From a phage, in NCBI GenBank assembly GCA_018175075.1, contig GCA_018175075.1_4100.1: 64,000 nucleotides of DNA; one strand, given 5' to 3'. The notes below the pieces were generated by a model that made no database searches, was not told the DNA's origin, and saw only the letters and a program-made list of their open reading frames with translations. The translations under genes were made by a program, and so were the position numbers. Positions 12,203-19,411 of the stretch are shown here, piece by piece; position 1 is the stretch's first letter; each line of letters starts with the position of its first letter.

Positions 12203-12541
12203 ATGGAACAATATTTTGAATTAATAAACAAAGTATCATTTTATGTAGTATCTTTGGTTTGGGTGTATTATATGTTTTGCTATATTATTGCATTCTTCCG
12301 ATATACTACTTTATATGAACGTATCTACTATGATGCCCCAATTTCATTCTTGATGTTTTGTGCATGTACGTGGGGAATATTAGAAGTACTGATATGTGGG
12401 TATAGTACTGATGAATTAAATCTGGTATCGGTGTTGACTGGGTTTTCATTTGTTGTTATGATAGCTGCCGTTCCAGTATGGTTGTTCTTTGGACTAGTTC
12501 ATCGCATTGATATATGGCGTTCTAATATCCCTGAAAAGTAA
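12203..12541 (+). CDS. small membrane protein, family A paralog
   Basis: hydrophobic; C-terminal R.N.PE(K/R) tail shared with next two genes. Confidence 0.55.
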   Translation: MEQYFELINKVSFYVVSLVWVYYMFCYIIAFFRYTTLYERIYYDAPISFLMFCACTWGILEVLICGYSTDELNLVSVLTGFSFVVMIAAVPVWLFFGLVHRIDIWRSNIPEK

Positions 12542-12544
12542 GGA

Positions 12545-12892
12545 TTGGAAATGATTTATTACACTAACATGTTTGCCTATGCTGTTGCTTGCATTTACAT
12601 TGTTTACTTCTTATTCGGTGGAGTACTGTGCTTCTTTAAGTACAAAACGTTGTTCAACCGAATGTACCCAAATCATCCAATTGTAGTTGTACTTTTGATT
12701 CTTTCAGTTTCTCAAATAATCGTTGAAACTACAATGGGTATCAGTAGTGTACATTATAGTTTTGGCACTATAGTAATTATTACTATGCTTATTGCATACA
12801 TTTTAGTACTTGGATATGGTATCTTTGGTAATATTGGTATGAAAATGTATCATCGAATTAAAACATTACGTGATAATCTACCGGAGCGTTGA
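12545..12892 (+). CDS. small membrane protein, family A paralog
   Basis: paralog of 12203 gene. Confidence 0.55.
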   Translation: MEMIYYTNMFAYAVACIYIVYFLFGGVLCFFKYKTLFNRMYPNHPIVVVLLILSVSQIIVETTMGISSVHYSFGTIVIITMLIAYILVLGYGIFGNIGMKMYHRIKTLRDNLPER

Positions 12893-12893
12893 T

Positions 12894-13238
12894 ATGTATA
12901 ATTTGAACCTAATCTCATATATTATAACAACACTGTTTACATTCTATGCCTTTGTTGGTATAATCCTACTGTACTTTAAATTTTATAAAGTGTTTAACCG
13001 TTTCTATCCTTCAATGGAGAATGAGTTTTTCTTTGTGTTGTACGTAGGTTACACATTAATGGCTACATGTTTCACTGTAGCCGATGGTGTCATCGGCATT
13101 AAAACTGATTCCCCAAATGGTAGTACGCTGGTTGCATTTATTCTTACTGGATTCCTTGCAACTTATATTGCCTTCATTACAACATGGTCAGTGGTTGAAT
13201 TTCTCTTGCGACTACGAAAGAATATGCCGAATCGATAG
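12894..13238 (+). CDS. small membrane protein, family A paralog
   Basis: paralog; ATG 1 nt after upstream stop. Confidence 0.5.
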   Translation: MYNLNLISYIITTLFTFYAFVGIILLYFKFYKVFNRFYPSMENEFFFVLYVGYTLMATCFTVADGVIGIKTDSPNGSTLVAFILTGFLATYIAFITTWSVVEFLLRLRKNMPNR

Positions 13239-13247
13239 GAGACATAT

Positions 13248-13502
13248 ATGTTTGCGTTGCGTAATAAAAACACTAAAGAATTATTATGTATTGATACCGT
13301 ATGGGATTGTGCGGGATCAACTACAGTTCTTGAAGAAGGAACTGGATATTGCGTGTTTGTTGTTCATGATAGGAATGAACTCGAATTATTACTTGCTGAG
13401 TTCAATGCTGGTGGTAATCCTAACAGTACTGAATACCCTGAGATTATCAATCCAGCACCACCAGGCTCTTATGAAATTCTACAACTGTGGGAGTTGAAGT
13501 AA
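13248..13502 (+). CDS. hypothetical protein, 84 aa
   Basis: ATG with AGGAGA RBS. Confidence 0.5.
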   Translation: MFALRNKNTKELLCIDTVWDCAGSTTVLEEGTGYCVFVVHDRNELELLLAEFNAGGNPNSTEYPEIINPAPPGSYEILQLWELK

Positions 13503-13882
13503 TGCGTCAAATGCACAAAGTAACCGAGCTAAACAAGCGTCTGGTTAAACAATCAATGTTCGAGGATAAAGAGTCTTATTATAACTTTAAACGTGCTGTA
13601 GAGGCTGCTATCCACATTCAGAAGCTTAAAGAACGTGGTTGTATTATTCTGGAAAATGGGTCGGAAGTTGTAACGGATGACTTTAGTGTAGCGTTTGATG
13701 TTTCACCTGACGGGACGCTATCAATGCCCCGCTTAGGAACTGGAAACATGACTGTTTGGGTTGGCTTCACTATGGGGAATGTACCTGGTACTGTGTACGT
13801 AGATGATGCGGAATTGAAAGACAGTTTCAAAAACTTATCTTATCTTGAACCACAATACGCACATGAAATGAATTTATTTTGA
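13502..13882 (+). CDS. hypothetical protein, 126 aa
   Basis: ATG overlapping upstream stop (TAATG). Confidence 0.5.
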   Translation: MRQMHKVTELNKRLVKQSMFEDKESYYNFKRAVEAAIHIQKLKERGCIILENGSEVVTDDFSVAFDVSPDGTLSMPRLGTGNMTVWVGFTMGNVPGTVYVDDAELKDSFKNLSYLEPQYAHEMNLF

Positions 13883-13883
13883 G

Positions 13884-16971: not shown

Positions 16972-17310
16972 ATGCTTGAGTTTTTTAATTCAGATACAAT
17001 GATTAGTATTACTTTGATTTATCTGTTTGGTTTTTTCTTTTATCATGCACTGGTTGTAGTACTGTGGTATTTTAAAAAGAAAATTGTTTTTAAACTGTAT
17101 CCAGTAAGGAATTCATCACTAGTTCTTTACACACTAGTTCAAGGTTTGTTTGCAATTGTTGGTCTTATGGCACACTTAATTTATTGTGCCAATCCTCACT
17201 TGAACTCAATCTCACAATATATTGTATTCTTTGGGTTGTTCATTTGGTTAGTTGTATACTTAATCCATCTCATTATTCATGGTAGAGATAAAATTCGCGG
17301 AGACTTCTAA
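16972..17310 (+). CDS. small membrane protein, family B paralog
   Basis: first of seven coupled hydrophobic ORFs with basic C-termini. Confidence 0.5.
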   Translation: MLEFFNSDTMISITLIYLFGFFFYHALVVVLWYFKKKIVFKLYPVRNSSLVLYTLVQGLFAIVGLMAHLIYCANPHLNSISQYIVFFGLFIWLVVYLIHLIIHGRDKIRGDF

Positions 17311-17657
17311 TGTTTGAAGCTTATCTTGAGTTTTTAAGGAGTAGTTCAGTTGCACATTCACTTGCAGGGATTATTCTAACAACTTATGTATCATTTTGGG
17401 TAGTTATGTTTCTAGGATGGTATTTTAAACGACAATTCTATAAACGTAATGGTGAAGATTTTATGAATTCTGCCATTAATCAATCGTTGTTTGCATCAAC
17501 ATTGATTGCATGTATTGTAGCAACACTCACAGGAAAGGTACTACCAGCTTTTTCCGCAGTTTACGGCACACTTGGGATGATATGTTTAACTTTTATATTG
17601 ACCATTAAAATTTGTTGTGTTATGATTGAACTTCGAAATAAGATACCGGAGGAATGA
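17310..17657 (+). CDS. small membrane protein, family B paralog
   Basis: start overlaps upstream stop. Confidence 0.5.
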   Translation: MFEAYLEFLRSSSVAHSLAGIILTTYVSFWVVMFLGWYFKRQFYKRNGEDFMNSAINQSLFASTLIACIVATLTGKVLPAFSAVYGTLGMICLTFILTIKICCVMIELRNKIPEE

Positions 17658-17992
17658 TGGAGTACTTTATTGATTTACTGCCGTGGTATATGAAAGTTAG
17701 TACCATGTACTATATTATTAGTGCTGGATTCTACTTTCTGATGTGGTTCTTTAAACGACCAATTTCAGTATTCATCGCTGATAACATGCTGCAATTAAAA
17801 TTACACGCATGGTTTGGTATGGCGATGATTATGCCTATTATTCACTACTCAATGATTAGTAGAGGTTTCCGTTCTAATGGTGAACCAATTGTATTAGTAT
17901 TCTATTGGGGTTCAACTATTGCATATGTAAGTTTGTTGTTGTTCCCAGTCGTTCATAAGTTACGTGCTAAAGTTCCTGATGCGAGGTACTAA
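17654..17992 (+). CDS. small membrane protein, family B paralog
   Basis: ATGA overlap. Confidence 0.5.
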   Translation: MMEYFIDLLPWYMKVSTMYYIISAGFYFLMWFFKRPISVFIADNMLQLKLHAWFGMAMIMPIIHYSMISRGFRSNGEPIVLVFYWGSTIAYVSLLLFPVVHKLRAKVPDARY

Positions 17993-18306
17993 TGGATATA
18001 GTAACATTGATTTACACGTTGTATTCATTCTATTTCATTATGTGTTGGGTTGGATTTTTATTTGTACTCAAGATGTTTGATTATGTTGAAAAACAGATAA
18101 AAGAATTTTGTATTCCTTTTATCGGTTCAACCATTATTAGTGTTTCTTGTGTGTATTTTTTGGTTTTTGATCCACCAGATAACACTGCAATGATTGACTT
18201 GATGTTACTACCAACAACTGTTACTTTTTTATGTAGTCTGATGCCGCCGATTAGCCGTGGACTAACAGAATTTAGACGCAATCAAAAGCGTAAACGAGGG
18301 ATGTAA
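17992..18306 (+). CDS. small membrane protein, family B paralog
   Basis: start overlaps upstream stop. Confidence 0.5.
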   Translation: MDIVTLIYTLYSFYFIMCWVGFLFVLKMFDYVEKQIKEFCIPFIGSTIISVSCVYFLVFDPPDNTAMIDLMLLPTTVTFLCSLMPPISRGLTEFRRNQKRKRGM

Positions 18307-18674
18307 TGGAAATTGCTCTTATTATCTTAACTGCTATGCTGTTTATTAGTACTGTGGTTATAATTGGTAAATTCTTTTGTGTATCATTTTTAGAAACGGT
18401 ATACGATGAAATTGCTGATGATTATGAATTACAAGCCGGATTTTTCATTACGTATTGGCTTAGTTTATTTTGTCTAGTCATTGCTTGGATTTTACATATC
18501 TTTAAATGGGGTATGGTAGACGGTGATCCTATTATGGCAATTATTGTTCTAGTGTTTGGTATCCTTGGTGGTGCAGTGCATAATCTAATGGTTATCTGGC
18601 AAACTGTTCAATATGTTTTGGTTCCCTATTTCGAAAAGATGCACAGTACAATTAAAAAACGTAAACGAGGTTAG
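18306..18674 (+). CDS. small membrane protein, family B paralog
   Basis: start overlaps upstream stop. Confidence 0.5.
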   Translation: MEIALIILTAMLFISTVVIIGKFFCVSFLETVYDEIADDYELQAGFFITYWLSLFCLVIAWILHIFKWGMVDGDPIMAIIVLVFGILGGAVHNLMVIWQTVQYVLVPYFEKMHSTIKKRKRG

Positions 18675-18675
18675 T

Positions 18676-19038
18676 ATGAACGGGATAGAATTATCTTTTG
18701 TTGGTCAATTACTAGTAATGGCGTATACATTTATCTTCTCACTGAATGCATTCGTGTGCATTGGGAAGTACTTCCATAAGCGACCATTATCAAATATATA
18801 TGATGTAATCCAAAAGAGATATAGTCCAGCATATACTGTGTTGGGTACAGTATTCAATTTTGGTTTTATTGTATTAATAATTGGACTGTTCACATCCTCT
18901 TTGAATACAATAACCTTCGGTCTTATGATATGTTCATTGGTATTAGCCGTAATTATATGTTGTTTAGTACTGCACCTTGTGGTACTATTGTATATAAAGA
19001 TCTCTGAAATCCACCAACGTTTGGGTATGAGGAAATAA
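18676..19038 (+). CDS. small membrane protein, family B paralog
   Basis: ATG with GAGG RBS right after upstream stop. Confidence 0.5.
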   Translation: MNGIELSFVGQLLVMAYTFIFSLNAFVCIGKYFHKRPLSNIYDVIQKRYSPAYTVLGTVFNFGFIVLIIGLFTSSLNTITFGLMICSLVLAVIICCLVLHLVVLLYIKISEIHQRLGMRK

Positions 19039-19039
19039 T

Positions 19040-19411
19040 ATGAGTTACCGTGAGATATTTTCCATTATTTCAATTATTATGTTCAGTACTGGAACACTGG
19101 TATGGTTATTATACTTCTTCTGTATTAATCCAGTGTATAATATGTTATGTAATATTAAATCAAGTGCCGGATATATCACTTTTATGGTCTTTATGGGATA
19201 TTATTGTCTAAGCATTTTAGGTGTTGTTTTGGTTGTTATATTTGATGTGGGACCAAATAGTGATGGTATGGAAATACATGAATTAATAACCATGTTTGGA
19301 TGTATGATACCAACAGCACTACTGTTTGTAGCTACTGGTAGTGGATTGATAAAATTATATAATTATTTAAAATCCATTCATAATTCCATTCATAATAAGC
19401 GTATGTCATAA
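19040..19411 (+). CDS. small membrane protein, family B paralog
   Basis: last member of array. Confidence 0.5.
   Translation: MSYREIFSIISIIMFSTGTLVWLLYFFCINPVYNMLCNIKSSAGYITFMVFMGYYCLSILGVVLVVIFDVGPNSDGMEIHELITMFGCMIPTALLFVATGSGLIKLYNYLKSIHNSIHNKRMS

Follow-up and report, generated by a model that had tools for sequence, protein, structure and literature searches.

Two arrays of small genes, three at positions 12203-13238 and seven at 16972-19411, lie on the plus strand of a 64,000-nucleotide stretch of phage DNA (NCBI GenBank assembly GCA_018175075.1, contig GCA_018175075.1_4100.1; the whole stretch is called the window below, and all positions refer to it). A first-pass annotation, made from the letters of the window, had proposed that the arrays encode ten paralogous membrane proteins of 104-122 amino acids (aa). 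All ten open reading frames (ORFs) were found at these positions, and revision of the starts of A2, A3 and B6 corrected the size range to 104-123 aa. A2 begins either at TTG 12545 (115 aa) or at ATG 12551 (113 aa), the start used in the annotation of phage 121Q, while the most likely starts of A3 and B6 are ATG 12894 rather than GTG 12870 and ATG 18676 rather than 18613. The genes are listed here with their predicted transmembrane (TM) helices, C-terminal tails and matching PHROG families:

A1: 12203-12541, plus strand, 112 aa, three TM helices, start ATG, tail RSNIPEK; phrog_19285 (E = 4e-59)
A2: 12545-12892, plus strand, three TM helices, tail RDNLPER
A3: 12894-13238, plus strand, 114 aa, three TM helices, tail RKNMPNR; phrog_19285 (E = 3e-4)
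B1: 16972-17310, plus strand, 112 aa, three TM helices, start ATG, tail RDKIRGDF; phrog_19454
B2: 17310-17657, plus strand, 115 aa, three TM helices, start ATG, tail RNKIPEE; phrog_19046
B3: 17654-17992, plus strand, 112 aa, start ATG, three weaker, aromatic-rich TM helices, tail RAKVPDARY; phrog_27396
B4: 17992-18306, plus strand, 104 aa, three TM helices, start ATG, tail RRNQKRKRGM; phrog_33258
B5: 18306-18674, plus strand, 122 aa, three TM helices, start ATG, tail KKRKRG; phrog_26405
B6: 18676-19038, plus strand, 120 aa from ATG 18676, three TM helices, tail RLGMRK
B7: 19040-19411, plus strand, 123 aa, three TM helices, start ATG, tail HNKRMS; phrog_27618

Judged by nucleotide comparison, the window phage is an Asteriusvirus, a jumbo myovirus of E. 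coli related to 121Q and PBECO4. In a megablast search with positions 12000-19500, 44 phage records matched, and 23 of these covered 80% or more of the query; every record belongs to the 121Q/PBECO4 group of jumbo myoviruses (Asteriusvirus), with a top identity of 96-97%. The 121Q counterparts of the two arrays are genes 207-209 and 224-232, each annotated as “hypothetical protein”. The notes “Phi92_gp231/233/234” in the record of phage ph0011 suggested a link to phage phi92 that proved spurious, as the phi92 genes encode proteins of 121, 75 and 71 aa in an unrelated context.

Nine of the ten proteins match PHROG families over their full length (19285, 19454, 19046, 27396, 33258, 26405 and 27618), all of “unknown function”. 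Eight score between E = 1e-51 and 1e-70 and A3 reaches 3e-4; B6 has only a match at 0.046, to 26405. We detected no match above noise for any of the ten in Pfam, NCBIfam, PADLOC or PDB sequence profiles. Fold searches returned only a protein's own ortholog or generic bundles, including one helical-bundle match at 12% identity that scored at noise level and carries no functional implication.

The claim of paralogy is borne out by profile methods, and pairwise comparison alone is mostly insignificant. Among the ten proteins, BLAST and phmmer connect A1 with A2 (E ~1e-6 to 1e-8) and, at the borderline, A2 with A3 (~1e-3), and no other pair reaches significance by these programs, so that profiles were required. 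We gathered 73 array proteins from the window and phages 121Q, ph0011, WPEC3, A4, Turkey5, RaK2 and Muenster, and single-linkage clustering (phmmer, E < 1e-5) resolved them into a single A-type cluster and seven ortholog groups, B1 to B7. Comparison of these groups with hhalign joined A to B1 (96.9% probability, E = 2e-10, 96 columns) and to B2 (95.8%), and joined B2, the most central member in the profile comparisons, to B3 (97.2%, E = 3e-11, 106 columns), B4 (88.5%) and B1 (82.5%). B5 was in turn joined to B7 (92.7%, 110 columns) and B6 (83%). The link between the two sets is weaker, with B2-B6 at 64% over 91 columns; reversed-sequence controls gave probabilities of at most 2% and scores of at most 18.5. 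A profile built only from A-type and B1- to B4-type sequences, searched against 260 window ORFs, recovered B7 (2e-7), B5 (8e-6) and B6 (2e-5) and no further ORF below E = 0.01, leaving four other small multi-helix ORFs (starting at 2226, 2526, 7646 and 14730) unmatched. From the hhalign and profile results together, the ten proteins form one family with two subfamilies, A with B1-B4 and B5-B7; by these profile comparisons they are a single superfamily, colinear over most of its length. Seven separate PHROG families are thereby joined as one. The family alignment contains no conserved stretch of 7-10 columns.

The first-pass annotation had also described two to four hydrophobic helices per protein. 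The helices are there, and topology prediction finds three hydrophobic segments in every one of the ten, a count that Kyte-Doolittle scans, an AlphaFold2 model of B2 and deposited TMHMM notes share. The helices of B3, less hydrophobic and aromatic-rich, nevertheless align helix for helix with those of its relatives. The B2 model (36-sequence alignment, mean predicted local distance difference test score 77.7) comprises three long helices together with a short helix at the N-terminus and another in a loop. With one representative taken from each of the eight groups, lysine and arginine total 57 in loop 1 and the C-terminal tail and 7 in the N-terminus and loop 2, and because of this positive-inside bias we assign an N-out/C-in topology. 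This prediction indicates that in all ten proteins the N-terminus is periplasmic and loop 1 and the basic tail are cytoplasmic. For most of the orthologs in Klebsiella phage Muenster, the depositors' TMHMM notes in the GenBank record read “3 TMDs; N-out, C-in”.

The most informative positions of the family are W-[YF]-F-K-[RK], which forms the boundary at the cytoplasmic end of TM1, R-x-K-[IL]-P-[DE] in the C-terminal tail, and an N-terminal E-F motif. All 38 sequences compared share the phenylalanine of the TM1-end motif (F39 in B2). Conservation inside ortholog groups is highest in TM1, loop 1 and the C-terminal tail (mean pairwise identity 0.47-0.49) and lowest in TM2, loop 2 and TM3 (0.29-0.37); under the predicted topology, the parts with the highest conservation face the cytoplasm and not the periplasm. 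The short basic tails that had been noted earlier are real and conserved, with R-x-K/N-[IL]-P-[DE] in A and B1-B3 and K-R-K-R-G in B4 and B5.

The genes of each array overlap or abut, as the first-pass annotation had stated. All internal junctions in the window have a stop-start spacing of -4 to +9 nt, and the Shine-Dalgarno sequence of the downstream gene sits in the final codons of the upstream one. Across four phages, 26 of 33 junctions fall between -4 and +2 nt, 31 carry a Shine-Dalgarno-like motif, and in 28 the motif lies inside the upstream gene. Codons that bear it include CGC GGA GAC (RGD), CCG GAG GAA (PEE), GCG AGG (AR), CGA GGG or CGA GGx (RG) and ATG AGG AAA (MRK). Because these tail codons also encode the next gene's Shine-Dalgarno sequence, the shared basic tail is in part a double-coding constraint; this does not explain the R-x-K-[IL] part of the motif, nor the Pro-Glu of A1 (CCT GAA). 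The elements that flank the arrays are:

Predicted sigma-70-like promoter: 11854-11882, plus strand, TTGACA-17-TATTCT, a consensus match only, in the gap before the operon g11919-A1-A2-A3
g11919, first gene of the A operon: 11919-12200, plus strand, 93-aa soluble protein whose stop lies 2 nt before the A1 start
Promoter-like site: 16914-16942, plus strand, TTGACAGTACT-N10-AGTACTAT, upstream of B1
Palindromic hairpin, candidate terminator or RNA end: 19418-19441, no strand assigned, ATCCAGTACT-atta-AGTACTGGAT, just after B7

A small ORF of similar size, matched by position and size in annotation tables, precedes the A genes in WPEC3, Turkey5, A4 and ph0011. The TTGACAGTACT-N10-AGTACTAT architecture recurs twice, near 55539 and 55815. 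Among the best plus-strand sigma-70-like matches in 11000-20500, 6 of 13 fall in short intergenic gaps, and these early-type promoters, as consensus matches, agree with the earlier placement of the arrays in an early region. Gene spacing and Shine-Dalgarno placement show two translationally coupled operons behind predicted sigma-70-type promoters, and the promoter matches support their being read by host RNA polymerase.

In both array promoters a palindrome lies directly 3' of the -35 TTGACA, CAGAAC-tgat-GTTCTG at 11858-11873, in the promoter spacer, and AGTACTA-N8-TAGTACT at 16919-16940; each could serve as an operator-like site or as a hairpin at the 5' end of the transcript. The AGTACT palindrome occurs 283 times in the window, compared with ~22 expected from base composition, and GGTACC and CGTACG occur 0 times each. 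About half of the AGTACT copies fall outside crude gene calls, which leave a quarter of the window uncovered, and those inside genes are found in all three frames. Pairs of AGTACT 16-24 nt apart (for example 16919/16935, 44329/44349, 47221/47243 and 55544/55560) bracket the -35 and -10 elements of sigma-70-like promoters, and four or more such architectures recur.

The arrays are conserved as sets of individual genes. The 2,440-nt B array aligns without any gap between the window, ph0011 and WPEC3, which are diverged from one another, and in this comparison the ratio of nonsynonymous to synonymous substitution rates (dN/dS) is 0.09-0.40 per B-array gene at a pooled dS of ~0.45-0.5. Separate orthologs of B1, B2, B3, B4, B5 and B7 occur in similar order in both Asteriusvirus and Alcyoneusvirus, the genus of the RaK2-like phages of Klebsiella. 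In the alcyoneusviruses RaK2 and Muenster (~34% identity), the order after the neighbouring ATPase gene is one soluble gene, then B2, B2', B1, B3, B4, B5, B7 and an additional family member, ORF316. Ten family members, traced by tblastn, follow the ATPase at the same position in Erwinia phage Hallingskeid, and Logan metagenome contigs carry ~11, with B1/B2/B3-like genes followed by B5-, B6- and B7-like genes, an ORF316-like gene and then convergent RCC1-like genes. Together, these sequence comparisons show that the array genes are real and under purifying selection, and that the paralogues are ancient.

Outside these phages the family is narrow. Matches of the arrays by tblastn are confined to 45 records, a word-indexed search of 5.8 billion proteins gave 18 matches to close relatives only, and among 1.84 billion protein representatives we found 29 clusters at E <= 1e-3. 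The 22 longest of these are full-length proteins of 89-118 aa, and those inspected carry the same conserved motifs. A search of IMG/VR with the distant members P0041 and P0032 found nothing.

The B array follows a gene that is not a member of the family:

16131-16904, plus strand, 257-aa P-loop/AAA ATPase, homolog of T4 NrdC.10 (~41% identity)

This ATPase gene lies directly upstream of the B-type array in every array-bearing phage examined, with the A array 4 kb away. NrdC.10-like ATPases are present in 1,310 phage records, and in three array-less phages that we inspected (T6, XaC1 and PA5oct) no array follows the gene. The window ATPase is 98% identical to that of WPEC3, 87% to that of Hallingskeid and 59% to that of 121Q, whose arrays are ~99% identical to the window's. 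A4 and 121Q have ATPases that are 99% identical, and the B array of A4 is only ~38% identical to that of the window. The ATPases fall into two alleles ~59% identical to each other, one in the window, WPEC3, Hallingskeid and a Logan contig and the other in 121Q and A4. On these identities, the alleles are exchanged independently of the flanking genes, and the adjacency of ATPase and array is conserved but without co-evolution. We found nothing specific in the literature on these genes, on NrdC.10 function or on arrays of small membrane proteins in jumbo phages. Just upstream of the ATPase, at 15635-16131, the window lacks several genes that 121Q carries between its genes 216 and 223 (121Q locus L001, 6644-10162): denV (endonuclease V), a 1,464-nt endonuclease gene and three small ORFs; the extra B1 paralogue of 121Q, gene 224, is also missing.

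Small proteins directed to the envelope are unusually frequent in the plus-strand block from 2 to 20 kb. Six ORFs (2931-3290, 3682-4032, 7906-8202, 10072-10383, 10727-11146 and, outside the block, 45199-45498) encode proteins of ~98-139 aa with signal-peptide-like N-termini, most with cysteines near both ends, and may represent a second family, secreted or periplasmic. Small ORFs that encode two or three hydrophobic helices and are unmatched by the family profile also lie at 2226-2465, 2526-2852, 3302-3679, 7646-7909 and 14730-14981. For a 224-aa ORF at 11183-11857, which has no Pfam match at E <= 0.1, the 121Q annotation gives protein kinase (inhibitor of host transcription). Convergent with the B array on the minus strand are ~12 tandem RCC1-like (beta-propeller) genes of 245-411 aa (20097-34289); phAPEC6 virions contain their homologs, gp003-gp010 (PMC7247149). 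The CCAGTAC...GTACTGG stem of the hairpin after B7 recurs between the RCC1-like genes, as CCAGTAC-N3-4-GTACTGG hairpins at three intergenic sites (27375, 28186 and 33079) and at 23814, close to where the ORF at 22598-23833 ends. Farther downstream, a ~53-nt unit containing ttgattcAGTACTgaataatAGTACTcctatatagaaaga forms a direct repeat, with copies at 40569 and 40622 (40569-40660).

The roles first suggested for the arrays were superinfection exclusion, lysis timing and membrane remodelling. We favor, with moderate confidence, a reading in which the arrays encode a non-redundant set of early inner-membrane proteins that modify the envelope of the infected cell and share a cytoplasmic motif. The ten proteins would be made early and in near-equal amounts, would insert into the host inner membrane, and would act there as non-redundant envelope modifiers of the host take-over or exclusion type. 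Each paralogue would have its own role, with a cytoplasmic-face interaction motif common to all, and the paralogues may co-assemble. The data do not point to a fast arms race, because every paralogue persists across genera as a distinct ortholog, with dN/dS of 0.09-0.40. Several points weigh against this reading. The activity is drawn by analogy from small early membrane proteins of other phages, the early timing is read solely from promoter consensus, and conservation on the cytoplasmic face fits exclusion acting from the periplasm less well. Copy number varies, with 8 to 11 family genes per phage and 0 to 3 A genes, so that not every member is indispensable. There are lineage-specific duplicates of B1, B2 and B4, with an extra B1 paralogue in 121Q and ph0011, two B4 genes in Turkey5 and two B2 genes in RaK2; RaK2 lacks B6 and all A genes, and A4 has a single A gene. 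In favor of the reading, no protein from the array region appears in the virion proteome of phAPEC6, where the RCC1-like gp003-gp010 are followed by gp035c (PMC7247149). Absence from virions is weak evidence, since mass spectrometry often misses small hydrophobic proteins. We do not count the split B4 ortholog of 121Q (genes 228/229, locus L001, 12359-12674) as a sign of dispensability: it differs from otherwise identical DNA by one extra T in a T6 run, the result of either a recent frameshift or a sequencing error at the homopolymer.

The same distinct single-copy orthologs in similar order across genera, together with near-universal coupling, cytoplasmic motifs common to the members and an ATPase immediately upstream in five lineages, would also suit a hetero-oligomeric inner-membrane complex (a channel, scaffold or anchor) whose stoichiometry is fixed by translational coupling and which is possibly served by the NrdC.10-like ATPase. 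We regard this as possible but doubtful; together with the immunity-like role considered below, it is the chief rival of the favored reading. The histories of ATPase and arrays are discordant (window and 121Q arrays ~99% identical, their ATPases 59%; A4 and 121Q ATPases 99%), the ATPase occurs in 1,310 records, including the array-less T6, XaC1 and PA5oct, compared with the 45 that match the arrays, copy number is variable and the A array is 4 kb distant. Tight gene packing is, moreover, common in phage regions of this kind. A specific form, which we hold to be rather unlikely, would make the B genes a ring or scaffold of ~7 different three-helix subunits, kept in equal amounts by coupling and specific to RaK2/121Q-like phages, with the A genes as accessory copies and the cytoplasmic FK and R-x-K-I-P-E motifs docking a soluble phage partner. 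It is very improbable that the arrays are functionless, either as duplicates in decay or as hydrophobic ORFs that arose by chance. They lack a known function and one member is frameshifted in the 121Q record, but dN/dS is 0.09-0.40, there are no indels at dS ~0.5, orthologs persist at ~34% identity in another genus, and the frameshift is the single T noted above.

Known systems supply two further alternatives. Small size, three TM helices, an N-out/C-in topology and a charged C-terminus are the hallmarks of class I holins, and the array proteins resemble the lambda S type (~105 aa, with a charged cytoplasmic C-terminus) in each, as they would if they were holins or antiholins that set lysis time. 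No holin or antiholin model matched at E <= 1 in PHROGs and Pfam or at E <= 0.1 in NCBIfam, however, and unlike class I holins the arrays comprise ten copies behind early-type sigma-70 promoters, the timing being inferred from the promoters. Nor do they lie beside an endolysin or spanin gene; their neighbors are the ATPase, hypothetical proteins and the RCC1-like genes. The endolysin gene of this phage group lies elsewhere (121Q gp532), and its product bears a TM segment of its own at the N-terminus (PMC5259590); the arrays (121Q genes 207-209 and 224-232) are unlinked to that gene. We consider lysis timing improbable, and both a holin role and a coupling to the NrdC.10-like ATPase are disfavored. 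In an immunity-like or anti-defense role, each paralogue would instead neutralize a different membrane-acting threat by intramembrane binding, such as pore effectors of host abortive infection, pore-forming bacteriocins, or the injection machinery and holins of rival phages. Such a role would suit small multi-helix proteins of the inner membrane that are encoded, with many other envelope proteins, in an early-type block; it would also suit the variable TM2-loop 2-TM3 hairpin with its lineage-specific duplications, and T4 Imm and the colicin immunity proteins (~110-180 aa) are precedents. We nonetheless think such a role rather unlikely, given no link to defense or immunity families in PADLOC, PHROG or Pfam, no sign of gene-wide positive selection, and orthologs that are stable between genera infecting different hosts.

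Among small multi-helix inner-membrane proteins, those conferring immunity to pore-forming colicins (Cei/Cai type) have 3-4 helices with their specificity in the membrane-embedded part. They share this general build with the array proteins; their genetic context is unlike that of the arrays, and Pfam, fold and PDB profile searches found no sequence or fold link. Small multidrug resistance proteins, including paired forms, were set aside, since the array proteins have three helices instead of four and no match to Pfam Multi_Drug_Res. The exclusion proteins Imm and Sp of T4, with two TM helices and one, respectively, are like the arrays in being small inner-membrane proteins from an early-type region of a large virulent myovirus. 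We detected no similarity to Imm, Sp or annotated exclusion and immunity families in PHROG, Pfam and PADLOC, and the search of 1.84 billion representatives returned only the 29 clusters of similarly short proteins (mostly 89-118 aa), of which the sequences inspected share the family motifs.

Most proteins of RaK2/121Q-group jumbo phages are annotated as “hypothetical protein”. Our analysis unites seven unconnected PHROGs of unknown function and one member without a strong PHROG match (B6) into a family with a defined topology, motifs and a conserved array architecture. Because it has such defined features and is maintained at 8-11 copies per genome under purifying selection, the family is a concrete, clonable target for the study of early inner-membrane effects. 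Should the copies co-assemble, the result would be a membrane complex of several virus-encoded subunits, which is unusual. If each acts alone, as an envelope modifier with its own role, then where T4 has Imm and Sp as single genes, these phages would carry a battery of 7-11 paralogues, comparable to the T4 proteins yet unrelated to them.

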